Source: Candidatus Binatia bacterium (GTDB lineage: Bacteria; Desulfobacterota; Binatia; UBA12015). Taken from it: a stretch of 64,000 nucleotides of DNA. The translations under genes and the position numbers were made by a program. The DNA lies in contig JAQWJE010000049.1 in the NCBI GenBank assembly GCA_029248525.1, forward strand, positions 386,535 through 450,534, written 5' to 3'. The notes under the pieces were generated by a model, which worked only from the letters and a program-made list of their open reading frames with translations, searched no databases and was not told where the DNA came from. Of the stretch, positions 24,364 to 51,785 are shown piece after piece; position 1 is the first letter of the stretch; the number at the start of each line of letters is the position of its first letter.

Positions 24364-26592
24364 CTAGGGCTGATCGATGAAAATCGGTGAGGACCAGGCG
24401 CGGTGGGCAGCATCCGCCAGACAATTATCGTCCCAGGGCCGCCCGAAACAGGGGCTTACACTGGCGCAGGTCACGCCATCTTCCTTCTGGCAATGCAGGG
24501 GGTTCGCGCCCACGGTCGGGGTCGGTTCCTCGATTGCGCGCGCGTAGTAGAGGACATCGCGGCCTGAGCCGAGAAACTCCGGATCGCTGAAGGTGACCTT
24601 GCAGCCAGAGCTGTCGTTTGGGCAGGGCAGCTGTTTCCAGGGGTCTTCGATCAGGGGGGCGACGTTCTCACCGGCGAACCTCTGCGGGCGAATCCGCACA
24701 ATATCGATGTGCGTAATCACGTTGCGCTCGTCGGAGGGAAAGTAGCACTCTCCCTGACAAAGGCGCTCGAGTCGGTCTCCAGCCATGGATCCGAGGGCAT
24801 CCGGAGGGCATCCGGGCTTCTGGCGGAAGGAACCGACCGCGCGAACCTCGAATGCCGGGTTTTCGCTGAGTTTGGTCTCGGCGCCCATGGGCAGGGTTTT
24901 TCCCTCAGGTCCATTGGTGAGGTCGAACCAGAGGAGAATGCGGGGCCCGCTGGTTCCATAGACTTCGCGGCGCTGCATCGCGTCCCAGATCGCGCCCCGG
25001 TCCCGGCCGCTTGCGTGCACCGCCGTGAGTCCGCCGTTGAGGAAAAAGGAAGCCTGCCTCTCGGTCTCGAAATTCGCAAAAGGGACATCGATCGCATCCA
25101 TTTCGATCGCCACAGACTCGCCGATCGGGTCGCGGGTATCCCTCGATCCGAGTTGAGTATCGAGGAAATTACCGAAGCGAGCTTCGGTGAACTCCTGACG
25201 GGAAATGGGCTTGTAGCCGGTTCCCGGGCGGGCCGAGTGGTTGTCGCTGGCGGCAAGGAAACCGAAGCGGAAGCGGTCCCGACCGGCGTCGTTTTCGGGC
25301 CGGTTGAGCGCCATAATGTACTGCGCGGAGCTTTTCGGCCGATAGTTGAAGGCCGGGATGAAGCAATCCTTGCACTGACCGGCATCCTGCCAGTCGGCGA
25401 TCGTCGTGCTCGGTACCGTCGAATATCCCCCATTGAAGGAGGCGTCGATATAACGGCGGCGCGCGAGTGCCGCCTTGTCCGCGCAATCCTGAGCGGAGTT
25501 GCCCTCGGCAACGCAGCGCGCGGCAACAATTTCTCCGGCACGCCAGCAGGAAGGTTTGTAGAGGTCGCTTTGTGGCGGCGGGCAGGCCTTTTCATTGTTG
25601 GCACCCAGAAGAACTTCTTCCCAATCACGATATTCCTCGGAGTTGCCGTGTCCGGAGTAGACCTCGATCAGGCGTTGCCAGCGCGGGCTATGCTGGGTGT
25701 TGGTCAGCTGCTTGTCCCAGGAGGAGCCCAACGGTGTGTAGAAACCCCAACTGGTCCCGTGCGGAATGACCAGAGAATCGAGGTTCCAATCATCGAGCCG
25801 GTCGAAAAGTTCTGCGGGTGTGGGTGCCGTATCCCGACAATTATCCGGGAGTTCTCGCACCGGGATGCCTTTCGGGCATGCAGGTACGCTGGAGAGTTCG
25901 GTGAAAAAGCGGGCCAATTCGGGGCCGCCGGAATCAGCTTCGGCGATGGCCAGAAGGCCCATGACCAGCGCGGGAGGAGCAGCTTCGGTCAACGGCGGAA
26001 GTCCCGGAGGCGTTCCGGCCGTGATGGGGTGCGTCGGAATACGCGCGTCGTCAAGATCCCGAAAAATCACGTTTTTGTGGCCCCAATGGTTGGTGGGCTC
26101 GGTGCCGACCTGCGTCCACTCCCAGCCGAGATAGGAAACCAGATCGGGATTGGTATCGCCTCCGATCTGCTGGCATTGACGCATCGAGTCAATGGTTTCT
26201 TCCCAACGTCGAGGGGTCAGGCTGAGGGCGTGGTCGTTGATCGACCAGAAGTCCAAACCGCTGCAATGACGAGCGAAATCGCAGGCATCAGCGACCGGAT
26301 AGGCTCCTGATCCGCCCGCCATGGGCAAGCTCATCTGAAAGGCGTCGAAGGAGAAAGTGGTGTGGACATGCAGATCGCCAAACAAGATCTGCTTTGGCGC
26401 CTCGACGCCGACCGATTTTGCGGCTTTCTCGATCGCGGCGGCTCGCTCGGCGATGACCGCGGGTGCGACTACTTTCCCCTGCGGGACGCCGCCGATCATG
26501 CTCTCGGCAAAATAGCCCTTGCCGAGAATGAAAAGCGTCACCAGGGACAGGCCCACGAGGCCGGCCAATACGATCAGGATCTTGTTTCGCAT
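24364..26592 (-). CDS. DUF3604-domain secreted protein (paralog 1)
   Basis: 742 aa. Signal/TM N-terminus. FGDLHVHTTFSFDA motif (PHP-like metal-binding) characteristic of DUF3604. Paralogous to the 39742..41757 gene. Confidence 0.6.
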   Translation of the reverse strand: MRNKILIVLAGLVGLSLVTLFILGKGYFAESMIGGVPQGKVVAPAVIAERAAAIEKAAKSVGVEAPKQILFGDLHVHTTFSFDAFQMSLPMAGGSGAYPVADACDFARHCSGLDFWSINDHALSLTPRRWEETIDSMRQCQQIGGDTNPDLVSYLGWEWTQVGTEPTNHWGHKNVIFRDLDDARIPTHPITAGTPPGLPPLTEAAPPALVMGLLAIAEADSGGPELARFFTELSSVPACPKGIPVRELPDNCRDTAPTPAELFDRLDDWNLDSLVIPHGTSWGFYTPLGSSWDKQLTNTQHSPRWQRLIEVYSGHGNSEEYRDWEEVLLGANNEKACPPPQSDLYKPSCWRAGEIVAARCVAEGNSAQDCADKAALARRRYIDASFNGGYSTVPSTTIADWQDAGQCKDCFIPAFNYRPKSSAQYIMALNRPENDAGRDRFRFGFLAASDNHSARPGTGYKPISRQEFTEARFGNFLDTQLGSRDTRDPIGESVAIEMDAIDVPFANFETERQASFFLNGGLTAVHASGRDRGAIWDAMQRREVYGTSGPRILLWFDLTNGPEGKTLPMGAETKLSENPAFEVRAVGSFRQKPGCPPDALGSMAGDRLERLCQGECYFPSDERNVITHIDIVRIRPQRFAGENVAPLIEDPWKQLPCPNDSSGCKVTFSDPEFLGSGRDVLYYARAIEEPTPTVGANPLHCQKEDGVTCASVSPCFGRPWDDNCLADAAHRAWSSPIFIDQP

Positions 26593-29395: not shown

Positions 29396-29519
29396 GGAAA
29401 AGCTTTAGCGGCCCGACGCGGATGGAGAAAGGGATTGGCTTGCCTCTTCTTCCAACTTTGGGTTGGGTAAGAGTATCGATGGGCGTTTGCTCGCCATACT
29501 CTCGGGGGGATTATCTGAA

Positions 29520-29984
29520 ATGTTGTCGAAATTTCGCGTAGTGACGGGTTTTTTGATTTTGGTCGGGCTATTTTTGGCGCCCACTGTCCATTCCGAAACC
29601 GATCTGGCAAGTCTGCCTGCTGGGCCGATTCGTGATCGAGTCGAATTGATGGAAGAGATTGGCGCGGCCGCAAAGAAAATCAATGAAGCCGCCAAAGCCG
29701 GCGATACGCAGGCGGTGATCGCCCCGGCCGAGGAGATTGCTCGCTTGACGCCGAAATTTGCCGAGCTGTTCCCTGCGGGGAGCACGCATCCCAATTCTCG
29801 AGCGAAGGCCAGCATTTGGACCAATCCCGACGAATTCGAAGCCTATAACGACTATATGGCCAAATACGCGCTCGCGATCGCTGCGACCGCCAAAGATGGC
29901 GGTAATGTAAAAAAAGCCGTGAAGAAAATGTTCAAGAGCTGCAAGAGTTGTCATAAAAAGTATCGAATTCCCGACGAAGATTGA
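29520..29984 (+). CDS. Cytochrome c' (class II c-type cytochrome)
   Basis: Signal peptide then four-helix-bundle-like sequence with C-terminal heme-binding CKSCH motif, typical placement for cytochrome c'/b562 family. ATG at 29520 with G-rich RBS. Confidence 0.55.
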   Translation: MLSKFRVVTGFLILVGLFLAPTVHSETDLASLPAGPIRDRVELMEEIGAAAKKINEAAKAGDTQAVIAPAEEIARLTPKFAELFPAGSTHPNSRAKASIWTNPDEFEAYNDYMAKYALAIAATAKDGGNVKKAVKKMFKSCKSCHKKYRIPDED

Positions 29985-31172: not shown

Positions 31173-32399
31173 ATGGAATTCAGGCGAGACCGGATCATTT
31201 TCCATGCAGATATGGATGCTTTCTATGCCTCGGTGGAACAGCGAGATCGCCCCTCGCTCCGCGGGCGTCCGGTTGCGGTTGGAGGCCTCCCCCCGCGCGG
31301 CGTGGTAACCGCGGCTTCCTACGAGGCTCGCGCGTTTGGGGTACGCTCGGCGATGCCGACATCCGAGGCCCTGCAGCGTTGCCCGCATCTCGAGGTGGTC
31401 CCGGGCAATATGAAGCTCTATGCGAGCGAGTCCCGCAAAATACGCAAGGTATTTGATGAGTTCTCGCCAGAGGTCGAACCGATCTCGCTCGATGAGGCGT
31501 TCCTCGATCTGACGGCATCGATGCGTGTTCTGGGTGGCCACAAGGAAGAGATCGCGCAGCGACTCAAGGATCGCGTGCGTGCCGAGACGGGCCTCTGCAT
31601 TTCCGTCGGGATTGGGCCGGTCAAAATGGTTGCAAAGATCGCCAGTGATTTATCCAAGCCCGATGGCCTGTTGGTTGTGGAGCCGAGCGACTGCCGCGAC
31701 TTCCTGGCGCCTTTGCCGATTCGTCGGCTCTGGGGTGTCGGGCCGGTACAGGAGGAGAAACTGCTGCGAAAGGGCATCCGCACCATCGGTGATCTGGCCG
31801 GGTTGGTTGATGTGGCTCCCGGAAGTGAACTGGCGCGGCTCTGCACGCTGGCACGCGGCGAAGACGATCGACCGGTCGAGAACACGCGCGAAGCTCGATC
31901 GATCGGCGAAGAACAGACCTTTGCGACCGATGTAAGGGACCGCGTCCGATTACGCGAGATGATTGGTCAGCACGCCGAAGCGGTCGCACGTCGGCTGCGG
32001 CGGGAAAACCTGGAGGCTCGGGTGGTCCGGTTGAAGATCAAATCCAACGAGAAGCTGGATCGACCGGGAAAGTATCGGATCTACACGCGCCAATTGACCC
32101 TGCCGGAACCAACCCAGGATGGGCGTCGGCTCCGCATCGCTGGCCATGAGTTGTTGTCCGACGACTCCTTGCCCCCGCAGGTTCGGTTGTTGGGACTGAC
32201 GGCCGCCGGCTTGCAAGAGGTCGGTGTGTCGGCGACAGGGCAGATCGATATGTTTGCCGGGGCGCCGCGCGAGGACCAGAGTCTGAACGAGGCGCTGGAC
32301 AAGATTCAGGATCGGTTTGGACTCGAGGTGATCCAGCGCGGGGGAGGTGCAAGGGTCAGCAAGGCATCCCCGAGTCTTGGGATCAAAAAGGGCGAGTAG
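31173..32399 (+). CDS. dinB: DNA polymerase IV
   Basis: IIFHADMDAFYASVEQRD N-terminal Y-family polymerase signature. 408 aa. Confidence 0.85.
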   Translation: MEFRRDRIIFHADMDAFYASVEQRDRPSLRGRPVAVGGLPPRGVVTAASYEARAFGVRSAMPTSEALQRCPHLEVVPGNMKLYASESRKIRKVFDEFSPEVEPISLDEAFLDLTASMRVLGGHKEEIAQRLKDRVRAETGLCISVGIGPVKMVAKIASDLSKPDGLLVVEPSDCRDFLAPLPIRRLWGVGPVQEEKLLRKGIRTIGDLAGLVDVAPGSELARLCTLARGEDDRPVENTREARSIGEEQTFATDVRDRVRLREMIGQHAEAVARRLRRENLEARVVRLKIKSNEKLDRPGKYRIYTRQLTLPEPTQDGRRLRIAGHELLSDDSLPPQVRLLGLTAAGLQEVGVSATGQIDMFAGAPREDQSLNEALDKIQDRFGLEVIQRGGGARVSKASPSLGIKKGE

Positions 32400-32432
32400 G
32401 CCCCTTATGGGGCCTGCTCGCTGCCTCTTTTT
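32398..32432 (+). terminator. Putative terminator after dinB
   Basis: AGGCCCC-ttat-GGGGCCT hairpin starting 1 nt after dinB stop. TTTTT 12 nt downstream. Between convergent genes. Confidence 0.4.
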
Positions 32433-32436
32433 AGCG

Positions 32437-34242
32437 TTATTCTTCTCCGATATAGTAGGCGCCCAGGATCAGGAACATCTCGTCTTCGGTGCTGACGCCT
32501 CCGTTGACAGGGCACGCATCACATAGCCCGTCGCCCTCTCCGGGGGTGGAGTCGCAAGTCGCATCATCGCCCAAGCCGTTGCAGGGCTTCCCAACCTGGC
32601 CCGACCAACAATTGGTTGGCGTACATCGACCGAAAATCGAATTCTGCGGGGTTTCCGAAGCTCGCTTCACGACGCTCGGGTCCGGCTCACCGTTTTCGCC
32701 GTAGCCATTATTATAAGTCGCGCAATAACGGAAGGTGCGATCCTCAACGTCCGGTGAGTCCATCTCCAATGGTGGATCAAAGTATTTGTTCAGAGGGTCG
32801 TTGTAGCTGAAGTTCTGATAGACCAGTTCACCATCAGGGTCGTAGACGAGGAACTCCTTGCCGCGCTGATGGTAGTGCGAGAGAAGGTTGTAGACGCGTG
32901 ACCCTTGGGGTGCGACCCAGCTTTGGCAGAAGGTTTTTTCCTCATATGCGGGGATCGAGATGCTCAGGATTTGATCGGCATCGAAGATCTGGAGGGAGCG
33001 TATCTGCGCATCTTCGGCAAAAGTCCAGTTCAGTCGCCCATTCATTTCGAGATCGCTGCCGGTGAGATTGAACGCATGGGAGTTCCAGTAGAAAATTCCC
33101 TCACAGGGCATTTCGTCGAAGACGCCCTCCGGCATGCTTCTTTTCTCGGAAGTTTGCTGCACGGTCAAAAGATTTGTCGAACTAAGGGGGCTGGGGCCAC
33201 CAGGGGGGCCAAAGCCGGTGCACCCGGGAGTATCCACGATGCGGCTGATACAGAAACCATCATCACAAGCGCCTTGTTCCTTGGGGTCGCAGGATTCGCC
33301 GGACTTCGAGCCCAGACTGCAGGTCCAATCGCCGAATTCAGGAGCATCGACGTCTGCGTATCCTGTGTACTCCATCAAGATGGCATGGTGGCTTTGTGCA
33401 TCCTGTCGGAGATTGTATTCCTCGATCCGGAATCTCTGGCCGTATTGCCTTGGTTGTCCTTGGTTCGGGGAGGTGTCTCTCTCGGTCAGATATTCTTCAG
33501 GGATCTGTCCGCAGAAATCGTAGTATGTCGCGAAGCAGACCTCACGCTCGCTTGCGGCCGGCAGCAGGTAGGAAGGCATGATCAACTGAACGCCTTCACT
33601 CGGGTCCGGGGCGTCCAGGGGCCGAATCGATTGCGGAAGTTCTTCGGGGAGGCAAGCCCCGAGTAGCTCGGCTGTACCCGCAACGGTGCCGTCTTCCTGT
33701 GCACCATTCTTGATCCATAGGCGCAGAAGTTCGATATCGTCCGTGCTCAAAGTACCATTGCCCGTGGGCATCGCGCCGCCGGCAATCTCGACTCCTTCGG
33801 GATCCAGTTTGGCGAGAACTTTCAGATAGAGATAGCTGTCCATCGGTGTTCCGGGTTCGATCAAGTCGAGGTCGAAAGTTTGCGACGGGATCTCATGAAT
33901 ATTCGCCCACGCGACTTCCGGGCTCAGGTCGAGTCCCGCGGCTGCATTGGATCCGTGACAGGGCCCGTCGGCACACTGCTGCTGCACGAAGATTTGCTCG
34001 TAGATGCCTTCCCAAGTGCTTTCGTAGGTGTTGATCTCGTCACACTCTTCAGGACTGTCGGTAGGCTCAGGCTCAGGCGTCGGCTCGGGTGTGGATTCTC
34101 CGGTTGGTTCCGGGGTGGGCATCGGGAGGAGCGGCATCCCGTTGTCCGAGGACCCCCCACCGCAACCGCTGATGATCAGCAGCAAGGCGATGAGAGCGCC
34201 TGCAGTAACTCTTGCGATGGGAGTTTTCTGTGGATGAGCCAT
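32437..34242 (-). CDS. Lipoprotein with C-terminal copper type II ascorbate-dependent monooxygenase-like (PHM/DBH-like) domain
   Basis: Lipobox LLLIISGC. Segments SHHAILMEYTG, NSHAFN, SHYHQRGK and EDEMFLILGAYY align with PHM CuH (HHMLLFGC, H172) and CuM (HTHHLGK, DEMCNLYIMYY) ligand motifs. N-terminal IFVQQQCADGPCHG is cytochrome-c-like (CX4CH). Start at Met 34242 uncertain (alternative 34299). Confidence 0.5.
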   Translation of the reverse strand: MAHPQKTPIARVTAGALIALLLIISGCGGGSSDNGMPLLPMPTPEPTGESTPEPTPEPEPTDSPEECDEINTYESTWEGIYEQIFVQQQCADGPCHGSNAAAGLDLSPEVAWANIHEIPSQTFDLDLIEPGTPMDSYLYLKVLAKLDPEGVEIAGGAMPTGNGTLSTDDIELLRLWIKNGAQEDGTVAGTAELLGACLPEELPQSIRPLDAPDPSEGVQLIMPSYLLPAASEREVCFATYYDFCGQIPEEYLTERDTSPNQGQPRQYGQRFRIEEYNLRQDAQSHHAILMEYTGYADVDAPEFGDWTCSLGSKSGESCDPKEQGACDDGFCISRIVDTPGCTGFGPPGGPSPLSSTNLLTVQQTSEKRSMPEGVFDEMPCEGIFYWNSHAFNLTGSDLEMNGRLNWTFAEDAQIRSLQIFDADQILSISIPAYEEKTFCQSWVAPQGSRVYNLLSHYHQRGKEFLVYDPDGELVYQNFSYNDPLNKYFDPPLEMDSPDVEDRTFRYCATYNNGYGENGEPDPSVVKRASETPQNSIFGRCTPTNCWSGQVGKPCNGLGDDATCDSTPGEGDGLCDACPVNGGVSTEDEMFLILGAYYIGEE

Positions 34243-34332
34243 CCAGAGATCATGTACAATGCCGACTACGGTGGCAAGCCCTAACTCAAGTGACGTCAAA
34301 TCAAGGTTTTTCTCCGATTATGGGTCACGAAT

Positions 34333-35193
34333 TCAGGATTCGCTCACCTGAATTTTATCGTCGACGTGAAGCCTGAGGCCTTTTTCGGCATGGCCGTTGC
34401 GGATCGCGATTTCGAGGTAGCCATCACTGCCGATCAAGGCGAGCGGTTCACCTTCAGCGACCTCCCCGTAAGTGCGGCACAGGGCAACGACGGTTTCGCT
34501 CCGAGGAAGTTGCGCCGCGCAGGCATCGGGAAGGTCCTCTCTGCGAAGATTCGTGATGGCGTTTCCGAAATGATCGAAGAGCAGGATGGTGCCCTCGATG
34601 CGGTTGCCGCGGCGCAAGGGATGCGGTCGCGGCAAGGGTAGGGGCTCGTATCGTGGACCTGTTTGATGCGGGGAAAGCGAACCGCTGGCAAGGGCGGCGG
34701 CGATCGGGGCAAAGAGATCGCGGCCGTGAAACGTTGGCGCGAGATCTACCGGCAAAAAGGGTTCCGTGTCGGGATTTCTCTCGATCTGATGGCAATGGAA
34801 TGGTCCCAGCCTATCCAGAGTTGGGCCGAGAACGCCATTATCAGGAGCCACGAAGCATTGGCCACCAGCCACAGCCACCAGGGCGCGTCGATCGGTTCCG
34901 ACGCCCGGGTCCACGACCACCATATGGACGGTCCCCTTCGGCCAATAGGGCGCTGCTGCCGACATTGTGGTGGCGCCGTGAATGATGTTCTGCGGCGGTA
35001 TCCCGTGCGCGATATTCTCGATCCGAAGTCGAGCATCGTGATTCAGAATCATGCCCTTCATCGCGCCCACATAGCCATCGGTCGTGCCGAAGTCCGTGGT
35101 CATGGTGACCAGGCCGCAGGGATGAAAGAGAGATGGCGGGTCGGTGGAGGCGGTCATGGCTTCAGCTTCAGCCGTGCGGCGGCTCTCTGTCAA
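34333..35193 (-). CDS. SAM hydroxide adenosyltransferase / SAM-dependent halogenase family (DUF62)
   Basis: TTDFGTTDGYVGAMKG N-terminal signature shared with fluorinase/chlorinase/SAM hydrolase family. True start may be an internal Met (35157 or 35103). Confidence 0.65.
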   Translation of the reverse strand: MTESRRTAEAEAMTASTDPPSLFHPCGLVTMTTDFGTTDGYVGAMKGMILNHDARLRIENIAHGIPPQNIIHGATTMSAAAPYWPKGTVHMVVVDPGVGTDRRALVAVAGGQCFVAPDNGVLGPTLDRLGPFHCHQIERNPDTEPFLPVDLAPTFHGRDLFAPIAAALASGSLSPHQTGPRYEPLPLPRPHPLRRGNRIEGTILLFDHFGNAITNLRREDLPDACAAQLPRSETVVALCRTYGEVAEGEPLALIGSDGYLEIAIRNGHAEKGLRLHVDDKIQVSES

Positions 35194-35220: not shown

Positions 35221-37680
35221 TCAGAAGCGGTAGGAGAGTTCCGCGCCCCAGGTCGCGGGTTGGCCCCAGAAGCGAATGGCAGTTCCCCAGGAGGACACTG
35301 TCGCCGGCATCGACCATTGCAGATATTCCGTCCCGGTGACGTTCTGTCCCCAGAAGGCAAACTGGGCTCGATCGTCGAGGAAATCGTAGCTGAGCCGGAG
35401 GTGCAGCAGGTGGTAGGCCGGTTGATTCGAGCTCCAGACCTCAGGCCCTTCGAAATGGAAGGCACTCTGGTAGCTCCAATCGAAGCGCGGGGTAATCCAG
35501 CCGTCCAGCCAGGCTGGTCCGGGAAGATCGATCGGTAGCGCATATTGCATCGATAGATGGGTTTGCAGGTGAGGGCTGAAAGGGAAGGTCTCGCCCGCGC
35601 GACTGATCGGCTGGCCATCCAATTGACTGGGTGCGTCGGGGAAGTCGGCATAGACAGCATCGAGCAGTCCCATCGAGCCGCTCACGCGGAATCCGTCGAT
35701 GGGTAGCGCCATGAACTCCCATTCGATTCCGCGGGTGGTTGCTCGCGCCGCATTCATCGTCACCTGCACGATATTCGGAATAATCTCACCCTCTTCGCTG
35801 AGATCCTGCAATTGCGTGACCTGGATATCATCATAGAGGCCGACGAAGCCCGCGATATTCATGGTCAGCCGCTGATCCCAGAGAATCGATTTGAAACCGA
35901 TTTCGAACGAGTCGAGAGTTTCGGGGGCGAAGTCCGTCAGATTGATATCGGCCGGATTCAGGACCCCATTGAAGCCGCCACCCTTGAAGCCGCGCGCGTA
36001 GGTAAAATACGAGAGGAGAGAGTCCAAGGGCGTATCCTCGAGCAAGGCTTCGGGCATCAATACGGAGATGGTTCCCATCGGGGTCCAGGACGGGAACAGG
36101 GCGGACTTCGGGGGCTCGCTATCCGCGGGTTGGTCGGGAAAGAAGGGGTCGATATTGGACTGTTGGATGCCCTTGCGATCCTCGCTATAGCGCAGGCCAC
36201 CAGTGAAGCTGAGCCATTCACGGGCGCGGAAAGTGGCTTGCGAGAAGAGTGCCCAGGTGAAGTTGTCGATCGCCGTGATGTTTTCTTTCCCGAAGCGAAT
36301 GGCGGTCTCGTAGCCGGAGAGGACGACGCGGTTGTCCGAGCCGTTCTCCCAAAGACTGAAATAGCCGACGATGAAATCAAGACGATCGTCGATCGCTGTG
36401 CCGCTGAGTTGGAATTCCTGCTGGATCTGTCGCTGATGTCCCGGCTTGCCATCGAAGGGGCTGCCGCCGCCTGCATCCGATATTTGCACGATCGTCAGAT
36501 CGGTTCCGTCGAAGTCCTGGCGAAAGCGAAAGTCCTGCTCGCGCCAGGAAGTGATCGATTTTGCCCGGAGATCGATGCCCGCGATTTCGCCGATATCCCA
36601 ATCAATGGTTCCCCAAGTCCCGTAGGAGATGGTTTCCTGCAGTTGCGAGGTATTTGACCAGTTGCGAAATGGCTCACTCCGATCACAGGCCTCTTGTACG
36701 TCGTATCCGGCCTGAGTGAAAAGACCCGCCAGGCCGGTATCCTGAATAAAGACGCATTGGCCTCCGGCGGCATAGCTATGATCCTGCGACCAGGAGCCGC
36801 TCACGTCGACCGTCAATGAATCGGTGGGCAACCAGCGAAGCGAGCCGAGAAAGGCGAGCGTGTTTCGATTGGACCAGTCCTGCTTCCGAGGCACGTTGCG
36901 GACCCAGCCACCATCCTGCACGGAGGCAAACGAAAATCGTGTGAAGAGTTTGTCCTCAAAGGGCCCGAAATCGATCGGCAGGTTGAGCATCGCCCGAGCG
37001 AGCATCGTCTTGCGGCTCCCGGGCCGCACGAGAGCAAAGCCCTCCACGGAATCCTTTGGCTTGGTTGTGGTGATATTGACGGCTCCCCCAACGGTATTTT
37101 TGCCAAAGAGGGTTCCCTGAGGTCCGCGCAAGATTTCGATTTGTTCAATATCGATCACATCGAGAAGCGCACCGACCGACCGCGGCAGAAAGACTCCATC
37201 AATGAAGACGCCGACGCCGGGGTCGAAGGCCATATCGGTATTGGAAGTCCCCACGCCACGGATGACAAAGTTGGCTTCCGCGCCGCTATCGGCCCCGTGG
37301 ATCTGGAGGTTGGGGACAAGGTCCTGAATCTCGTCAAGCCGCGTGATCCCTGCCTCGCGGAGCGTGCTCTCGCTGAGTGCGGTCACGGCGACAGGAGTTT
37401 CTTCCAGACGTTCACTCCGCTTGCGTGCGGACACCACAATTTCTTCGATGGTCTTTCGCCTCGAAGCGGAGCTCTCTTCCGAGGCTTGCTCGGGTTCGCC
37501 GGAGGAGTTCTCAACCAGACTTTCGGGGGAGCTCTCTGTCGCTTCCGCACCCGGATTCTGTACGGAGATCGTTTCAACCGCTGGCGTCACGTCTTCAGCC
37601 TGAGCGAAGGCATAGCCTGTCGCGCAAGCAACCCATGAAAACAGAACGAGAAAAAAACCAGCCTTACCTCGAACGGCCAT
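35221..37680 (-). CDS. TonB-dependent receptor
   Basis: Signal peptide (MAVRGKAGFFLVLFSWVACATGYAFA), plug-domain motif ETPVAVTALSE, beta-barrel, C-terminal ...LSYRF. Start set at Met 37680. Confidence 0.8.
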   Translation of the reverse strand: MAVRGKAGFFLVLFSWVACATGYAFAQAEDVTPAVETISVQNPGAEATESSPESLVENSSGEPEQASEESSASRRKTIEEIVVSARKRSERLEETPVAVTALSESTLREAGITRLDEIQDLVPNLQIHGADSGAEANFVIRGVGTSNTDMAFDPGVGVFIDGVFLPRSVGALLDVIDIEQIEILRGPQGTLFGKNTVGGAVNITTTKPKDSVEGFALVRPGSRKTMLARAMLNLPIDFGPFEDKLFTRFSFASVQDGGWVRNVPRKQDWSNRNTLAFLGSLRWLPTDSLTVDVSGSWSQDHSYAAGGQCVFIQDTGLAGLFTQAGYDVQEACDRSEPFRNWSNTSQLQETISYGTWGTIDWDIGEIAGIDLRAKSITSWREQDFRFRQDFDGTDLTIVQISDAGGGSPFDGKPGHQRQIQQEFQLSGTAIDDRLDFIVGYFSLWENGSDNRVVLSGYETAIRFGKENITAIDNFTWALFSQATFRAREWLSFTGGLRYSEDRKGIQQSNIDPFFPDQPADSEPPKSALFPSWTPMGTISVLMPEALLEDTPLDSLLSYFTYARGFKGGGFNGVLNPADINLTDFAPETLDSFEIGFKSILWDQRLTMNIAGFVGLYDDIQVTQLQDLSEEGEIIPNIVQVTMNAARATTRGIEWEFMALPIDGFRVSGSMGLLDAVYADFPDAPSQLDGQPISRAGETFPFSPHLQTHLSMQYALPIDLPGPAWLDGWITPRFDWSYQSAFHFEGPEVWSSNQPAYHLLHLRLSYDFLDDRAQFAFWGQNVTGTEYLQWSMPATVSSWGTAIRFWGQPATWGAELSYRF

Positions 37681-37765
37681 AGCGGATGTTCCTCCATCAC
37701 TGGTATGACGCTTGAGGCGGTGTCGGGTCAAGCGGACGGAAGTGCATGACGGGGCGGCTGATCGC

Positions 37766-39745
37766 CTATTCGTCCAGCAAGGATTCCAATGCGGTCTGGC
37801 GATCCAGCCAGAGTTCTTCGCATTCTTCCAATTCTCGACTGATTTCCGCGTGACGCTGCTGGCTTTCGCGGACATTGTCGCTGCCGGCTTCGTACGTCGA
37901 AGGGTCGGCGAGTCGTGCTTCGAGTTCCTTCCGCTCCCCTTCAAGACGCGCCATATCCTTGTCGAGTCGTGCGATTTCGGCGCGCACGACCTTCGTTTTG
38001 GCAGCGTTCTGGTTGCGAGTTTCCGCGGCGAGCCTTTTTTCCTCCTTGCGGGCGCGCCCGCTGCGCTCGAGAGGAGGCGCCGTTATGTCCTTGGGCGCGT
38101 TCGCCGTCTTCTTTGCAGATGCCGGAAGGTTTTCCGGGGTCAGGCTTTCCTGCTTGCGTCGCCAGAGATAGTGGTCCCAATCACCCGGGTAGTCGCGGAC
38201 CTCGCCATGCTCGATCCGGACCACCCGCTGCGCGATTTTCTGGATAAAGTGGACATCGTGGCTCACGAAGCCGATCGCTCCCTCGAAACGTTCCAGGGCG
38301 CTTACGAGCGCATCGACCGACGGCATATCGAGATGAATTGTCGGTTCGTCCATCAGGAGGACGCTGGGCGGATTGAGAAGAACCATCGCCATGGCCAGAC
38401 GACTCTTTTCACCGCCGCTTAAAACTCGGGCTTGTTTGTCGACATCGGTTCCGCGGAAAAGGAAAGCGCCGAGCAGGCTGCGGACTTCCGTCTCCCCGGC
38501 ATCACGGGAGGAGTCCATCGCGTTCTGCAGCACCGTATTGTCGAGCGCCAACATTTCCTGGCGATGTTGGCCGTAGTAGCCCACTGTGGCTCGCAAGCCG
38601 ACTTCCCGGTCGCCATGGTCGGGCTTTAAAACTCCGCCCAGAAGTTTCAGCAGGGTGGACTTCCCGGCGCCGTTGGGGCCGACGAGTACGGTCTTTTCGC
38701 CGCGTTCAAGTCGGAAGTCGAGATCCTTGTAGACATGCGTTTCCTCGTAGGATTTCGAGACATTCTGGAGCGCGAGGGCGAGACGCCCGGTCCGCGGCGG
38801 TTGCGGAAATTGGAAGGAGACTTTGCGCGCATCCTTCTCGACGACGATTCGAGTTTCCTTTTCCAGCGCCTTGATCCGGCTCTGCACCTGTCGTGCCTTG
38901 GTTGCCTTGGCGCGGAAGCGTTCGATGAATTTCTCTGTTTCCCGGATCCGGCGCGCTTGTGCGTCGGCCGAGGCCTCGAGCTGGGCGCGGCGCTCGTCGC
39001 GTTGTCGGAGGTAGCTCCGGAACCCCCCTGCGTATCGGGTCACGATGCCGCGATCGATCTCGACAATCGATTGGGTCAAAGCCTCGAGAAACGCGCGGTC
39101 ATGGGAGATGACGACCAATGTGATATCGGACCCCGCCAGATGGTCCTGCAGCCAGAGGACGGATTCCAGGTCGAGGTGGTTGGTGGGTTCGTCCAGAAGC
39201 AGCACGTCCGGCGGTGTTGTCAGAAGTCGGCCCAGCTCGGCACGCATCGCCCAGCCTCCTGAAAGGGTGCGCAGGGCGCGCTCCTCATCTCCCGGAGGGA
39301 ATCCGAGCCCCGCGAGAACTTTCCGGGCGCGTGCTTCCCGATCGTGACCGCCGAGTTGGGCGAATCGTTCATGGGCCTCGGCAAGTTCGGCGGATAGTCG
39401 AGCCTGCTCTTCGGCAGTGGCGTTCTCGATGCGGTCGGGGAGCGTTTCGAGGGCTGCCTCCAGCCGAGCGAATTCCGGGTCGGGGCGGAGCGCGGCTGAA
39501 AGTGCCGTTTCCTCCGACTGGGAATCGAGCTCCTGTCGCAGCATGCCGATCCGTATGCCCGAGTTGTGACCGACCCGGCCGGCATCAGGCTCCTCGTCGC
39601 CTACGATGAGTTTGAGGAGGGTGGACTTGCCGGCCCCGTTGGCGCCTACGATGCCGGTCCGTTCGCCGCGCTCGAAACGCAGCTGGAGGCCTTCGAAAAG
39701 CGTTCTTCCGCCAACTGCCTTATGAATGTCTTCCAGCCAAATCAC
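37766..39745 (-). CDS. ABC-F family ATPase (tandem ABC ATPase domains, no TMD)
   Basis: Two Walker A (GANGAGKST, GPNGAGKST) and two LSGG signatures. Linker and C-terminal coiled-coil typical of ABC-F (EttA/Uup-like). Confidence 0.8.
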   Translation of the reverse strand: MIWLEDIHKAVGGRTLFEGLQLRFERGERTGIVGANGAGKSTLLKLIVGDEEPDAGRVGHNSGIRIGMLRQELDSQSEETALSAALRPDPEFARLEAALETLPDRIENATAEEQARLSAELAEAHERFAQLGGHDREARARKVLAGLGFPPGDEERALRTLSGGWAMRAELGRLLTTPPDVLLLDEPTNHLDLESVLWLQDHLAGSDITLVVISHDRAFLEALTQSIVEIDRGIVTRYAGGFRSYLRQRDERRAQLEASADAQARRIRETEKFIERFRAKATKARQVQSRIKALEKETRIVVEKDARKVSFQFPQPPRTGRLALALQNVSKSYEETHVYKDLDFRLERGEKTVLVGPNGAGKSTLLKLLGGVLKPDHGDREVGLRATVGYYGQHRQEMLALDNTVLQNAMDSSRDAGETEVRSLLGAFLFRGTDVDKQARVLSGGEKSRLAMAMVLLNPPSVLLMDEPTIHLDMPSVDALVSALERFEGAIGFVSHDVHFIQKIAQRVVRIEHGEVRDYPGDWDHYLWRRKQESLTPENLPASAKKTANAPKDITAPPLERSGRARKEEKRLAAETRNQNAAKTKVVRAEIARLDKDMARLEGERKELEARLADPSTYEAGSDNVRESQQRHAEISRELEECEELWLDRQTALESLLDE

Positions 39746-41757
39746 GTACTGGGAGGTACGTACCAGATGGGAGACGTCCAGGCGCGTTCCTGAATGACAC
39801 GCGCGATTTCAGGGTCCTGACAGCCGCCCGGTCGATTTTCGGGCTCGAATTCGAGGCATTGCCAGGCGTTCCAGCGGCAAGAGGGGTTCTCCAGAATCCG
39901 AGCGTAATATACGGCTCGCTGATGCGGATCGAAATCGGGATCGCGCCATCCCCCGCAGAGCTCTCGGTGCCCGGGGCCGGATACGGCGCAGGTATCGAGG
40001 TCGACGGTCGCGCCATTTTCGGCCCCGCCGGCGACCTCATGCACCGATTGGTGGAAGGTATCGTCGGGCCCGTACCACCCCTTCACGATTTGAATATGCT
40101 GCAGCAAGCCTCCGGGATTTTTCGCTGTGCCCGGATCCGCGAGTGCCTGCACGACGAACGTCGGGGCCACACCGATGTCGGGCGCGTCCGGGAGGGTGCC
40201 TCCCATGGGAACACCGAGTTCGTAGCCCAGTTCGGCCAGATTGCTCCGTTCACAGAGGTCCGGCGGCAAGTTCCAGCCGGCGAAGAGGCGGGGGCGGATG
40301 CGGGGGCCGCTGGTGGCAAAGGTTTCGCGTCGTCGCAGGGCATCAAAGACGGCTTCTCGGGAATTCTCTTCCGCCCAGACGCCCGCAAGCCCGCCGGGGT
40401 TTCTGGCGAGATTGCTGCCGATCCCCGCGGCGCCGTTTCCGCTTGTGAGGCGTTTGCGCGCTGTATCGTCCATGATGCCGGACGTCCCGGGATAGCTCTT
40501 TTCGACGACGACACCGGGTGCAGCATTATGAGTATCCGTGCTGCCGATAAAACCCACTTCAAAGGGGTTGATACCGAGGCGCTCCTCTTCGCGCATCCCC
40601 TCGATGATGGCATAGCGTGCGTAGTCCAGCCTCTGGACGCATCCCTTGCGGGCCATGGCCCCGAGAGAGCGCTCGGTGCCGATACAATTCTCGGGGCCGA
40701 GTTCGCCAAGACCGCGCATCTTTTCGAAATTGCAAAGCTCATCGACGCCGCCAAGCACTTTCCATAAGTCGTTGCGGCACTCGGACTCGCCCTTGATCTG
40801 CATCATCTCGACCAGCGGCTCGAGTCGTGCCCGGAGCGCGACTCTTTTTTTCTGTTCGGCAAGCGGCAGGTCCTGATAGTCCAGCGTGAAGATATGCCCC
40901 CCGGAGAGATTGGGATTATGGGGAATTGTCAGGGCATCGCACGGTGTGCCCGTGTCGAGGCAGCGGCTGACCAGCTTCTCCCATAAATCCACCTCGGTGG
41001 CAGCGTCGATCCAGGAGATCGGGAGCTCGGGAACGACATTGTTTCGGAAGAAGACATTGCGGTGAATTTTCGTGCGGCCAGGAGAGCGACTGTATTCCCA
41101 CGCAACCAGAGTCGTGAATTTGCACGAGGAAGACCGGTCATAGAATTCCTCGGCCGCACGCTGGGTTTCTTGCCAGCGAGATTTTGCCGCAGCGCGACAG
41201 GGGCGAGCCTCGTCCCCGCAAATGGTTGCGCCGCGACCTTCCAATGTCATGATCCCGAGCATCCGAGAGGGCCAACCCTTGAGGCCCAGCATCCACGCTA
41301 TCCAGGAGTCTTCTTCGCCCCGGAAAATACGACAGTCGCCGGTGTCGTAGACTGCCGAACCGGGTGTGGTGCAGAGACTGACTTCGCCCAGCCACTCGGC
41401 ATGGTCGGTGACGGCGGCAAAATCCAGTGGTCGATCAATCTTCAGCCCACGAGTGCCCTGGCCGTCCGGACCAAGCGGCGGAACGAAAATCTCCTCGCCC
41501 CGTGCATAACGATAGGCGTCGCCGGGTTGGTTGATGACATCTCGGCCTCGGGCATCCATGGAGAGCCCGGTATGGACATGAAGATCGCCAAAAAGAGCTT
41601 GCCTGGTTTCGCGTCGATCCAGGCAGGGCTCGCGCGGCAGGACTTCGATTTGTGGAGCGGCCCCGCCAGGTGGGGACCATTCGGGATGTTCTGGTTCAAA
41701 GTTCCCGAAATCGCATCCGGAGAGGAGGGTCAGAAAGAGAGCGCATCGGAGTCGCAT
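39742..41757 (-). CDS. DUF3604-domain lipoprotein (paralog 2)
   Basis: 671 aa. Lipobox LTLLSGC. ALFGDLHVHTGLSMDA motif as in paralog 1. Stop overlaps ABC-F start by 4 nt. Confidence 0.6.
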   Translation of the reverse strand: MRLRCALFLTLLSGCDFGNFEPEHPEWSPPGGAAPQIEVLPREPCLDRRETRQALFGDLHVHTGLSMDARGRDVINQPGDAYRYARGEEIFVPPLGPDGQGTRGLKIDRPLDFAAVTDHAEWLGEVSLCTTPGSAVYDTGDCRIFRGEEDSWIAWMLGLKGWPSRMLGIMTLEGRGATICGDEARPCRAAAKSRWQETQRAAEEFYDRSSSCKFTTLVAWEYSRSPGRTKIHRNVFFRNNVVPELPISWIDAATEVDLWEKLVSRCLDTGTPCDALTIPHNPNLSGGHIFTLDYQDLPLAEQKKRVALRARLEPLVEMMQIKGESECRNDLWKVLGGVDELCNFEKMRGLGELGPENCIGTERSLGAMARKGCVQRLDYARYAIIEGMREEERLGINPFEVGFIGSTDTHNAAPGVVVEKSYPGTSGIMDDTARKRLTSGNGAAGIGSNLARNPGGLAGVWAEENSREAVFDALRRRETFATSGPRIRPRLFAGWNLPPDLCERSNLAELGYELGVPMGGTLPDAPDIGVAPTFVVQALADPGTAKNPGGLLQHIQIVKGWYGPDDTFHQSVHEVAGGAENGATVDLDTCAVSGPGHRELCGGWRDPDFDPHQRAVYYARILENPSCRWNAWQCLEFEPENRPGGCQDPEIARVIQERAWTSPIWYVPPST

Positions 41758-48415: not shown

Positions 48416-49689
48416 GAAACAACGAGAAAATCAAACCTTTTTTTCGGGTGGTCCCCCCGGCGGAGGCGCGGGAGGCGATCGGTCGGATCAACTCGCTCGG
48501 TTCCGAGTTTGTTCCGGTAGAATCTGCGAGTGGCCGCGTTCTGGCCGCGGCCCTGCTGGTTCCCGGCGACCTGCCGACATTCGATCGCGCCCATATGGAT
48601 GGTTATGCGGTGCGGGCCCGGGACACTTTTGGTGCGTCGGACTCCCTGCCTGCGTATTTGAAGCTTTCGGGTGTGGTCGAGATGGGTCAGGCACCCAAAG
48701 AACCATTGCCGCGCGGTTGCGCGATGAGGATTGCTACCGGGGGCATGCTCCCGGAAGGCGCCGATTCTGTGGTCATGATCGAGTACACGGAAGAAGTGGC
48801 GGGGGGGCAGGTCGAGGTCAGTCGGAGCGTGTCGCCCTGGGAGCATGTGATCCGTATCGGTGAGGATATCGCAGCCGGCGCAGAGATTTTGCCGGCGGGG
48901 AGGCGTCTTCGCCCCCATGATCTGGGCGCATTGACCGGGGTGGGCATCCTCGAGGTTTCGGTGGTTCGACGCCCCCGATTGGCCTTGATCGGCACTGGCG
49001 ACGAAATCGTGGATCCTCGAACCGAGCCAGCACCGGGCCAGGTCCGGAATATCAATCAGATCTCCCTGCGCGCGATGGCCGAGGCGGCCGGGGCAGAGGT
49101 CCTGGACTTCGGGATCTGCAAGGACGACCCGGAGGCGTTCGCGAGCGTTCTGGCGCGTGCTCTGGCGAGTGCGGATACGGTATTTGTTTCGGGCGGCAGC
49201 TCGGTGGGCGTCAAGGATATGACTCTCGATGTCATTGCCGGAGTCCCGGAGACGGAACTTCTTTTCCATGGTATCTCGGTCGCCCCGGGGAAGCCGACCA
49301 TTCTGGCGATGACCGGAAACGGATCGGAACGAAAGGCGATTGTCGGTTTGCCCGGCCATCCTGTGAGTGCGTTGGTGATTTTTGCCGTCTTCGGAGGCCC
49401 GTTGGTGCGGATCCTCTCGGGCGAGGCGCCCGCGCTCGCCTTTGCGCCGCAGAACCGTACCCGGGCGAAATTGGGGCGGAATATCGATTCGGCACCGGGT
49501 CGCGAAGATTACGTTCGCGTCCGCGTCGTGGAAGGCCCGCAAGGGATGGTGGCCGAGCCATTGCCCGGTAAATCGGCGGCCATTTTTTCTCTGGTATACG
49601 CCGACGGGTACGTTGTCGTGGATCTGCATCGCGAGGGCCTGGAAGCTGGCAGCGAAGTGGATGTGATCCTGTTCGCAGGGGGGATCTGA
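48412..49689 (+). CDS. moeA: Molybdopterin molybdotransferase MoeA
   Basis: MoeA N-domain, MoCF-binding domain with VSGGSSVG motif, C-terminal domain. 425 aa. Stop overlaps next gene start (TGATG). Confidence 0.8.
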   Translation: MRNNEKIKPFFRVVPPAEAREAIGRINSLGSEFVPVESASGRVLAAALLVPGDLPTFDRAHMDGYAVRARDTFGASDSLPAYLKLSGVVEMGQAPKEPLPRGCAMRIATGGMLPEGADSVVMIEYTEEVAGGQVEVSRSVSPWEHVIRIGEDIAAGAEILPAGRRLRPHDLGALTGVGILEVSVVRRPRLALIGTGDEIVDPRTEPAPGQVRNINQISLRAMAEAAGAEVLDFGICKDDPEAFASVLARALASADTVFVSGGSSVGVKDMTLDVIAGVPETELLFHGISVAPGKPTILAMTGNGSERKAIVGLPGHPVSALVIFAVFGGPLVRILSGEAPALAFAPQNRTRAKLGRNIDSAPGREDYVRVRVVEGPQGMVAEPLPGKSAAIFSLVYADGYVVVDLHREGLEAGSEVDVILFAGGI

Positions 49690-51785
49690 TGTCGAGAAAG
49701 CGCTATTTGAACAAAAAGCCACTGCAGGAGGCTCGGGCCGATATGTTGGCCAGCGCGAGCCCTCTATCCACGCACGAGGTGGTTGGGGTCGAGGGGTCTC
49801 TGGGCCGGATAACCGCGGATGCCGTATATGCCGCGCAATCGGTGCCGCATTATCACGGCGCTGCCATGGACGGCATTGCGATTCGCGCGGAAGATAGTTT
49901 CGGCGCAAGCGAAGGGCGAGCGGTTACCTTTGAACGAGGCGACCCGGAATCTGTCGATCATCCTTTCTCGTACGTCGACACGGGCAACGCCCTGCCGACC
50001 TGGGCCAATGCAGTCGTCATGATCGAGAGAGTGTTCTCCGGAGAGGCCCCGGCGGATGGCCGTCCGATGTTGCCAACCACCGAGACCGCCGTGGGCGTCG
50101 ATGATGGTTGTTGCGGGCCCGACGAGGAACCGAACCACCAGCATCCGGAGACCACAGGTTCGGAGCCGGTGAGCGGTACGGATTGGGAACAGATTCATGT
50201 GCGGACGTCGAGCACTCCCTGGCAGCATGTCCGCCTGGTGGGGGAGGATGTGGTGGCGAGCGAACCGCTGCTTCCTCGGGGACATCGAATTCGACCGTTT
50301 GATGTAGCTGCCTTGCTCGCCGCAGGTCGCCAGGAAGTTGCGGTGCGCCCGCGCCCACGCGTTGCGATCTTGCCGACGGGAACCGAGCTGATCCAGCCTG
50401 GCGATAGTCTCGAACCAGGTCGCGTTGTCGAGTTCAATTCCCGGATGATCGCAGCCTTTGTCGATGAATGGGGGGGAGATCCGGTCAGGCTGCCGCCGGT
50501 GGTCGATGATCCGGAAAAATTGCGGCAGCGATTACTTGCAGCCCTCGAAGAAGCCGATGTGGTTTGCGTCATCGCGGGTTCGTCAGCAGGTGAGCACGAT
50601 TTTACGGCGTCCACACTCGCCGGCATGGGCTCTCTGCTGGCACACGGGGTCGATGTGATGCCTGGAAAGCCTGCCATTGTCGCGAGTCTCGATCCGCCGG
50701 CAGGCCGTCCGCAAATGGGGACGCGGATTGCTCTGGGGATGCCTGGCTATCCAGTTTCTTCGGCGATCATTTGTCGAGAGCTGTTGGAGCCCTTGTTGGC
50801 GCATCTCCTCGGCACAGCAATCGCGGATCGGGTGACGCTTGCGGCGATCGCACCTCGTAAATTGCCCTCGCGTCTCGGACAGGAGGAGTTCATTCGAGTG
50901 ACGCTCGGCCGGGTGGGTGGGCGCTTGCTGGTCAGCCCTCTGCCGCGGGGTGCTGGCGCGATTACCACCATGGTCAAGGCGGACGGTTTTTTGCGCGTAT
51001 CCCCTCTGGTCGAGGGGATCAATGCGGGGGAAGAGGTCGAGATCGAATTGTTACGCCCTCGCGCGGAGGTTGAGGGGACCGTTCTGGTCACGGGCAGCCA
51101 TGACCCGATGCTGGGTGTTCTGGAGAATGTCTTCAAAAAGAATTTCCCCGCCGGAAAGTTGGCGACCAGCTCGGTCGGCAGCCTCGCGGGATTGCTCGCT
51201 CTGGGGCGCGGGGAAGCTCATATGGCGGCGACACATCTCCTCGACCCGGAGACCGGAGTTTACAATCTGCCCGATATCGAAAGACTGATTCCCGAGGTGC
51301 CGGTGCGGATCCTTACCCTCGCCGTGCGGGAGCAGGGCTTGCTGGTGCCCAGAGGCAATCCGCGAGAGTTGTCCGGCATTGCGGATCTGGCAACGACGGA
51401 CGTCCGTTTCGTGAATCGCCAGAGGGGTGCTGGTACGCGTGTTCTACTCGATTTTCATTTGGATCGCGCCGGCATCGATCCGGATGAAATCGACGGCTAC
51501 GACCACGAAGTCTTTACGCATACTGCGGCTGCGGTGGCTGTTTCCAGTGGCCTTGTGGATGTCGGATTAGGAGTCCGCTCAGCTGCTGTCGCTTTGGGCC
51601 TGGACTTCATTCCGGTCGACCAGGAGGATTATGATCTGGTCTTGCGAGAGGACTTCGCGGCATCGCCGGTGGGCGAGGCTCTCTGCGAAGTGTTGCGGAG
51701 CGAAGATCTTCGTCGCGAGATCGGCGCGGTACCCGGTTATCAGACCTCCAGTACGGGGACCGAGAAGAAACTGACCGCACTGTAG
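49689..51785 (+). CDS. MoeA-like protein fused to C-terminal periplasmic-binding-like (molybdate-binding, COG1910-like) domain
   Basis: N-terminal ~400 aa MoeA-like (IAGSSAGEHD motif). C-terminal ~250 aa resembles PBP-type molybdate/tungstate-binding domain. 698 aa. Confidence 0.65.
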   Translation: MSRKRYLNKKPLQEARADMLASASPLSTHEVVGVEGSLGRITADAVYAAQSVPHYHGAAMDGIAIRAEDSFGASEGRAVTFERGDPESVDHPFSYVDTGNALPTWANAVVMIERVFSGEAPADGRPMLPTTETAVGVDDGCCGPDEEPNHQHPETTGSEPVSGTDWEQIHVRTSSTPWQHVRLVGEDVVASEPLLPRGHRIRPFDVAALLAAGRQEVAVRPRPRVAILPTGTELIQPGDSLEPGRVVEFNSRMIAAFVDEWGGDPVRLPPVVDDPEKLRQRLLAALEEADVVCVIAGSSAGEHDFTASTLAGMGSLLAHGVDVMPGKPAIVASLDPPAGRPQMGTRIALGMPGYPVSSAIICRELLEPLLAHLLGTAIADRVTLAAIAPRKLPSRLGQEEFIRVTLGRVGGRLLVSPLPRGAGAITTMVKADGFLRVSPLVEGINAGEEVEIELLRPRAEVEGTVLVTGSHDPMLGVLENVFKKNFPAGKLATSSVGSLAGLLALGRGEAHMAATHLLDPETGVYNLPDIERLIPEVPVRILTLAVREQGLLVPRGNPRELSGIADLATTDVRFVNRQRGAGTRVLLDFHLDRAGIDPDEIDGYDHEVFTHTAAAVAVSSGLVDVGLGVRSAAVALGLDFIPVDQEDYDLVLREDFAASPVGEALCEVLRSEDLRREIGAVPGYQTSSTGTEKKLTAL

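Follow-up and report, generated by a model that had tools for sequence, protein, structure and literature searches.

The textbook noncoupled two-copper monooxygenases are peptidylglycine alpha-hydroxylating monooxygenase (PHM; PDB 1PHM/1SDW, Pfam PF01082 and PF03712) and dopamine beta-hydroxylase (DBH), which have been studied almost solely in animals and depend on ascorbate. In these enzymes, a copper held by two His and one Met (CuM) binds O2 and abstracts hydrogen from the substrate, a copper held by three His (CuH) ~11 Å away gives the second electron, and ascorbate re-reduces both coppers. Animals use enzymes of this type to produce amidated peptide hormones and noradrenaline. Heme groups tethered for one-electron delivery to copper are a similar design known from cytochrome c-fused copper nitrite reductases and from the cytochrome domain of cellobiose dehydrogenase, which feeds LPMOs; the folds and chemistry of these systems are unrelated to those of the protein described here. 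The original prediction for this locus, made from sequence alone, had described bacterial PHM-like enzymes as barely characterized. The literature that we searched gave no account of the family reported below or of any PHM-like enzyme fused to a cytochrome c; an earlier mention elsewhere is not excluded.

Here we describe a 601-residue protein from a member of the Binatia that is probably a lipoprotein combining a c-type cytochrome-like domain with a PHM/DBH-like two-copper domain; the occupancy of the copper and heme sites is inferred. The protein is only ~12-14% identical to PHM and falls under the Pfam thresholds. It differs from PHM in carrying two Cys-rich insertions (~37 and ~51 residues) and Leu in place of R240, N316, and Y318, and in being a predicted bacterial lipoprotein with an N-terminal putative heme c domain, without the PAL domain and without the ascorbate/cytochrome b561 setting. 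The group formed by DBH, tyramine beta-monooxygenase, and MOXD1 (PDB 4ZEL) provides the best structural match: the catalytic core is alike, and in both cases an extra N-terminal domain precedes the copper core. The extra domain of DBH, however, is a beta-sandwich of the DOMON type; its counterpart here is predicted to be an alpha-helical c-type cytochrome, and the DBH-type C-terminal dimerization domain is absent. Because the Pfam thresholds are not met and the PHM substrate residues are missing, we regard the family as a bacterial variant of the PHM/DBH kind and not as PHM proper.

The locus and its predicted lipoprotein

The gene lies in the window, by which we mean the whole 64,000-nucleotide stretch of DNA that was analyzed; coordinates are counted from its first letter. 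The gene, its predicted domains, and the residues discussed below are as follows.

32437..34242, minus strand: complete gene, 601 residues plus stop (open reading frame list, translation, and a 99%-identical public protein of 601 residues, P0001)
34162..34242, minus strand: signal peptide with lipobox, residues 1-27 (...LLLIISG-C27), from reading of the sequence and conservation of Cys27
34045..34161, minus strand: low-complexity Pro/Glu/Thr-rich tether, residues 28-66 (sequence; pLDDT <50-60 in the model; variable length in the alignment)
33643..34044, minus strand: c-type cytochrome-like domain, PSCyt1-like, residues ~67-200
33955..33975, minus strand: CX4CH putative heme c attachment site, C90-ADGP-C95-H96
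33766..33771, minus strand: M158-P159, candidate distal (sixth) heme ligand (120/120; the sole invariant Met of the N-terminal domain)
32968..33630, minus strand: PHM-like N-subdomain with the CuH-type site, residues ~205-425
33385..33390, minus strand: H285-H286, equivalent to PHM CuH ligands H107/H108 (120/120; on the HH column of the PHM profile)
33208..33318, minus strand: Cys-rich insertion 1, residues 309-345, within the PHM C126-C131 loop (C318, C326, C331, and C341 invariant)
33076..33078, minus strand: H389 (WNSHAFN), proposed third CuH ligand, equivalent to PHM H172 (120/120; placement approximate)
32440..32967, minus strand: PHM-like C-subdomain with the CuM-type site, residues ~426-601 (structural matches, profile alignment, weak PF03712 matches in 11 of 37 members)
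32869..32877, minus strand: H456-Y-H458 (SHxHxRGK), equivalent to PHM CuM ligands H242/H244 (HTHHLGK) (120/120; aligned)
32503..32655, minus strand: Cys-rich insertion 2, residues 530-580, not present in PHM (six Cys, five of them invariant and C577 in 119/120)
32476..32478, minus strand: M589 (GGxSTE[ND]EMF), equivalent to PHM CuM ligand M314 (GGTSSDEMC) (119/120, the exception being a gap; aligned)
32391..32422, no strand assigned: strong hairpin separating the 601-residue gene from the convergent dinB, followed by a T-run on both strands

The longest open reading frame at this locus extends to a TTG at 34299; the 601 residues are counted from an ATG. The ATG is the likelier start because it yields a standard lipoprotein signal (MAHPQKTPIARVTAGALIALLLIISG-C27) and because the resulting length equals that of P0001 and agrees with the starts of the homologs. 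The N-terminus, MAHPQKTPIARVTAGALIALLLIISGC, passes from positive charge through a hydrophobic core to the lipobox I-S-G-C27, the Cys of which is kept in 116 of 120 aligned homologs. Together with 14 conserved Cys in the C-terminal region (thirteen found in 120/120 sequences), the signal peptide and lipobox are consistent with export to the oxidizing periplasm; export itself is inferred. The hairpin downstream of the gene is predicted to be a bidirectional intrinsic terminator shared with dinB. No paralogs of the protein were found inside the window.

A homolog search returned 280 proteins, from which two alignments were built (n = 37 and n = 120, down to ~42% identity). Nearly all of the homologs are labeled "hypothetical protein" at source, nearly all lack a precomputed Pfam domain, and those with a named source come mostly from Binatia or "Deltaproteobacteria" metagenome-assembled genomes (MAGs). 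The 601-residue protein contains eight His, six of which (H96, H285, H286, H389, H456, and H458) are conserved in 100% of the 120 sequences, while the remaining two are conserved in no more than 8%. Among its 12 Met, only M158 (100%) and M589 are conserved, the start Met aside. Every conserved His and Met is thereby accounted for by one heme c together with a His3 and a His2Met copper site.

The PHM/DBH-like region and its candidate copper ligands

An AlphaFold2 model computed on the 120-sequence alignment has a mean pLDDT of 87.9 and a pTM of 0.83, with only the signal peptide and tether poorly predicted. Searched against the PDB with Foldseek, its top 30 matches are all human DBH or rat PHM (human DBH, E 1e-10; rat PHM, E from 1.6e-9 to 5e-6, probability 1.00, target TM-scores of 0.43-0.61). 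Only PNGase F and unrelated jelly rolls come next, at E >1e-4. With high confidence, then, the C-terminal ~400 residues (205-601) are predicted by the model to adopt the two-domain beta-sandwich of the PHM/DBH type. The original prediction had placed the PHM-like part in the C-terminal ~300 residues; this size did not hold, as the two Cys-rich insertions enlarge the region to ~400 residues from ~310.

This resemblance is largely invisible to sequence searches. Scanning the 601-residue protein against Pfam and NCBIfam with hmmscan returned only noise, with no model at threshold, and phmmer and family-profile hmmsearch against PDB sequences found nothing. As to the two Pfam models of PHM in particular, neither matches the protein itself; across the 37 family members PF01082 has zero matches and PF03712 only weak ones (11 members, best E 0.019).

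To compare the family with PHM at the level of profiles, we used hhalign with a profile of 120 PHM relatives, the PHM core sequence having been checked against the PDB. The alignment is collinear over 256 columns, with a modest pairwise E of 0.011. In addition to the His and Met residues marked as aligned in the list above, it pairs five Cys with Cys from the disulfides of PHM (C236=C81, C308=C126, C331=C131, C439=C227, and C507=C293) and matches an "MP...C" strand, W-x-C308 with W-F-C126, G-x-C331 with G-T-C131, and the HxHxxGK and GGxSxxEM motifs. When run against a single PHM sequence, hhalign aligned nothing beyond brief local stretches around the Met or HxH motifs (E ~0.15), and forced global modes gave nonsensical alignments.

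The least certain of the equivalences is that of H389, which lies four residues off H172 in a low-confidence stretch of the hhalign alignment. Its distance from an invariant anchor, P-x-G373-V (aligned to PHM LPKGVG), is 15 residues, compared with 18 for H172 in PHM, and from this we infer that H389 sits on the equivalent strand; exact equivalence is unproven. When the H389 region was realigned alone against the H172 region, only PxGV was anchored and the offset of 3-4 residues persisted.

In sequence, the motifs follow in the order S-H285-H286, WNS-H389-AFN, S-H456-Y-H458-QRGK, and STEDE-M589-F, and the invariance of six His among eight rules out a chance pattern. The protein thus probably carries two copper sites, one CuH-like (H285/H286/H389) and one CuM-like (H456/H458/M589), the metal content and geometry of which are inferred. 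The original prediction of CuH (HH...H) and CuM (HxH...M) contexts in that order holds, with the match of H389 to H172 remaining approximate. It would have been refuted by ligands that are not conserved in position or by a fold other than the PHM beta-sandwich; the alignment contradicts the former, and the latter failed to appear in the predicted structure. By contrast, the residues with which PHM binds the carboxylate of its substrate are replaced: R240, N316, and Y318 correspond in anchored alignments to L454, L591, and L593. Because of this replacement by Leu, we infer that glycine-extended peptides are not the substrate.

The N-terminal cytochrome-like domain

Residues 84-97 (IFVQQQCADGPCHG) hold the CX4CH segment, which the original prediction had read as a c-type heme-binding site in a lipoprotein. 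Both elements of this reading are supported by conservation, that of the lipobox Cys27 and that of C90, C95, and H96, which are present in 120/120 sequences. The CX4CH pattern is matched by 116 of the 120 homologs; three others miss the pattern yet retain C90, C95, and H96, and one (P0010) has a canonical CIGCH at exactly this position. CX4CH is a described and accepted, though uncommon, heme c attachment motif (PMC11492766). When residues 64-205 were modeled separately, the domain was predicted with a pLDDT of 87 as a helical cytochrome c fold. Met-Pro is a typical setting of the distal Met ligand in class I cytochromes. In this domain M158 is probably the distal heme ligand and H96 the proximal one, with the ligand role inferred. 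Covalent heme is likewise probable in the 601-residue protein; its attachment is inferred, without biochemical data. A cytochrome c' gene (PF01322) at 29463-29984, 2.5 kb from the gene, indicates that the organism makes c-type cytochromes.

The nearest relatives of this domain are PSCyt1 ("Planctomycete cytochrome C", PF07635), the heme domain of fatty-acid cis/trans isomerase (CTI, PF06934), and FoxE (PDB 5MAB). Of 31 N-terminal domain sequences from the family, 21 weakly match PSCyt1 (best E 5e-4), 14 match PF06934, and three match Cytochrome_CBB3; the 601-residue protein's own domain is unmatched by PSCyt1. All three relatives differ from the family in that its motif is CX4CH, not CXXCH, in ~119 of 120 sequences, and the scores stay below the Pfam gathering thresholds. 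Relative to PSCyt1 and CTI, the heme domain is moreover fused to a copper monooxygenase-like core instead of to PSD/DUF15xx modules or to the CTI body.

The likeness to CTI raises the alternative that the heme is catalytic, as proposed for that enzyme, and that the beta-sandwich is mainly substrate-binding or structural. In its favor are the PF06934 matches just mentioned and weak matches to the same profile in 10 of 37 full-length members (best E 5.9e-5, P0247, profile positions 81-114 of 692). However, the match is limited to a short stretch around the heme segment, leaving the remaining ~580 CTI positions unmatched; the invariant Met-Pro at M158 suggests a six-coordinate, electron-transfer heme; and this alternative gives no reason why all six copper ligands should be invariant. 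We therefore consider a CTI-like function very unlikely. CTI family membership as such we rejected, as similarity to the profile of ~690 positions is weak and confined to brief segments of its heme region.

Family distribution, gene context, and proposed mechanism

An exhaustive search with the family HMM, covering 1.84 billion cluster representatives, recovered 372 representatives (50% identity clusters) at E ≤1e-30, 2,716 at ≤1e-10, and 10,049 at ≤1e-3; the two looser tiers probably contain proteins with just one of the two domains. The fusion is constant, with full-length representatives spanning profile positions ~10-45 to ~565-570. Longer members add DUF4215 Cys-rich repeats at the N-terminus, and one has a PQQ-type propeller behind. 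Among species-representative genomes, 417 loci with relatives were found, nearly all in Binatia-type MAGs, the few others being in Myxococcota and Bradymonadia. Among 80 of these loci, individual MAGs supply 5-9 each, a count that sets the minimum number of paralogs per genome. The presence of many divergent paralogs per genome suggests hydroxylases with differing substrates, a possibility that we raise only tentatively.

The closest locus (69% identity, in a Binatia MAG) repeats the gene order of the window: DUF3604, ABC-F, TonB-dependent receptor, SAM_HAT, the homolog, dinB, aminotransferase, and aconitase. Loci of ~60% identity have glcDEF-like genes inserted beside the gene, with a second paralog close by; distant members have unrelated surroundings. 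A search for a conserved neighbor (three contigs, plus clustering of open reading frames from 80 loci) found no partner in more than ~6 of the 80 loci; it was a rough search, as the simple open reading frame caller took antisense shadow frames in GC-rich DNA. At the loci examined, the family has no consistent link to an electron donor, a copper chaperone, or a substrate pathway. The upstream TonB receptor and SAM_HAT genes were considered as a functional linkage and rejected, as their synteny is confined to close relatives; with no partner consistently linked, the adjacent receptor is not functional evidence. A di-heme peroxidase/NHL protein was seen at 4 of 80 loci, too few to count.

One could also suppose that these proteins are not enzymes at all, but lipoproteins for copper binding or trafficking, or PNGase F-like binding modules, in which the CX4C forms a disulfide or metal site without heme. 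Periplasmic copper-handling proteins also have His/Met copper sites, the PNGase F family shares the fold and gives weak structural matches, and heme attachment here is unproven. Nevertheless, the cytochrome fold and the homolog with CXXCH, along with the weakness of the PNGase F scores and the number of paralogs, all speak against this alternative, and we hold it to be very improbable.

In our preferred explanation, the protein faces the periplasm and acts as a self-contained monooxygenase that holds a single heme c together with two copper sites. Its firm parts are the PHM/DBH-type fold, the ligands in their invariance and order, the cytochrome fold of the N-terminal domain, and the constancy of the fusion. 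Taken as a whole the explanation is probable, with metal and heme occupancy, electron direction, chemistry, and substrate all inferred. By analogy with PHM, the His3 electron-transfer copper and the His2Met oxygen-activating copper would flank an interdomain cleft; the His2Met copper would bind O2 and take a hydrogen atom from a substrate C-H bond, leading to hydroxylation of the carbon at a cost of two electrons per turnover. The heme c would accept electrons one at a time from respiratory carriers in the periplasm and pass them to the His3 copper, replacing the role that ascorbate, recycled by cytochrome b561, plays in the animal enzymes. Since both copper sites are kept, ascorbate is not expected in the periplasm, and a monoheme cytochrome is always tethered, the heme as electron source is the simplest reading. 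The original prediction had likewise proposed a fused heme domain as the donor in place of ascorbate; this remains an inference, toward which the balance tips only slightly.

The same fold and metals could instead serve reversed electron flow or other chemistry: the copper would oxidize a substrate in the manner of an oxidase or dehydrogenase, or turn over reactive oxygen or nitrogen species, while the heme c exports electrons to the respiratory chain, or H2O2 would be used in place of O2 and two electrons, as in a peroxygenase. Cytochrome c-copper enzyme fusions exist in both directions, cytochrome-fused copper nitrite reductases being one example; moreover, no partner gene sets the direction of the electrons, and the PHM substrate-binding residues are absent. 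On the other hand, the His3 and His2Met set, the defining feature of the O2-activating PHM/DBH class, is invariant, and the closest folds are monooxygenases only, so that we consider this alternative unlikely. The weak points of the monooxygenase reading are the lack of any Pfam or NCBIfam match at threshold or of a sequence match in the PDB, the modest E of 0.011, the offset of H389, and the absence of a conserved neighbor gene.

A bolder reading is that the protein is the founding example of a large, unrecognized class of ascorbate-independent, cytochrome c-driven PHM/DBH-type monooxygenases, periplasmic lipoproteins that radiated into many paralogs in the Binatia and some Myxococcota for varied hydroxylations; for this joint claim we see as much reason for doubt as for acceptance. 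The Pfam Cu2 monooxygenase models overlook a large bacterial clade. If the monooxygenase reading is true, it would supply a function for a family of 372 or more clusters (50% identity) to which no curated model assigns an annotation, and would add hundreds of divergent C-H hydroxylases from the Binatia, an uncultured phylum already noted for its oxygenase-rich metabolism. The heme c-fused bacterial branch would then offer a natural system in which to study how electrons reach CuH over a long range when no diffusible reductant is involved, and would show noncoupled two-copper chemistry, regarded as "animal," wired into a bacterial electron-transport chain.

Gene order and neighbouring genes in the window

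The cytochrome/PHM-like gene (32437-34242) shares the window with the following genes.

61648-63732, minus strand: TonB-dependent receptor, the second of two
57856-59442, minus strand: 528-aa ORF
51848-54841, minus strand: 997-aa protein with DUF4215
49689-51785, plus strand: fusion of MoeA (molybdopterin molybdenumtransferase) with a periplasmic-binding-protein-like domain (PF12727)
39742-41757, minus strand: DUF3604 protein
35221-37944, minus strand: TonB-dependent receptor, the first of two
34333-35193: SAM hydroxide adenosyltransferase-like gene
29463-29984, plus strand: cytochrome c'
24364-26592, minus strand: DUF3604 protein

The first TonB-dependent receptor lies upstream of the family gene on the same strand, with the SAM hydroxide adenosyltransferase-like gene intervening, and this three-gene order is retained only in the locus of the closest relative, L006. 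The cytochrome c' gene, located 2.5 kb from the cytochrome/PHM-like gene, encodes a protein with one CXXCH that matches PF01322 (E 3e-24); its presence shows that c-type cytochromes are matured in the source organism.

Less than 17 kb separates the two DUF3604 genes. One of their products matches the profile over its full length (E 1.6e-158) and has a lipoprotein-like N-terminus (LLSGC), and the other, of 742 aa, matches it only in part. The 528-aa ORF is coding-like in composition and has no Pfam match at E<=1e-4.

Taxonomic labels of family loci

Several family loci are found in metagenome-assembled genomes titled as unrelated taxa: L025 (JAXMEE01, 'Burkholderiaceae'), L033 and L071 (a 'Klebsiella pneumoniae' MAG), and L011 ('Enterobacteriaceae'). 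The match statistics of L025 are identical to those of L024, which belongs to a Binatia MAG from the same study. These names are likely to come from misbinning or mislabelling in the public records and not from true occurrence of the family in those taxa.

Added domains, recurring neighbours, and paralogs

Many of the longer members of the family (among them P0247, P0248, and P0254) carry, N-terminal to their cytochrome/PHM-like core, the DUF4215 Cys-rich repeat that is also the sole Pfam match of the 997-aa protein in the window. In one member, P0290 (1249 aa), a PQQ-type beta-propeller (PF13360/PF01011) is located C-terminal to the PHM-like core; this propeller could be an alternative module for redox chemistry or binding.

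L046 (2761-5340 and 10283-12202), L048, L074, and L076 encode, near their family members, a further periplasmic heme protein, in which NHL repeats are fused to a di-heme cytochrome c peroxidase/MauG-like protein; four of 80 loci are insufficient to establish it as a partner of the family.

In two relatives at ~60% identity, a far more divergent second paralog is located a few kb away, past dinB, the gene convergent with the family gene in the window.

L001, 16428-17756, minus strand: second family paralog, ~41% identity
L007, 11108-12721, minus strand: second family paralog, ~41% identity

This proximity points to local duplication as one source of the paralog expansion of the family.
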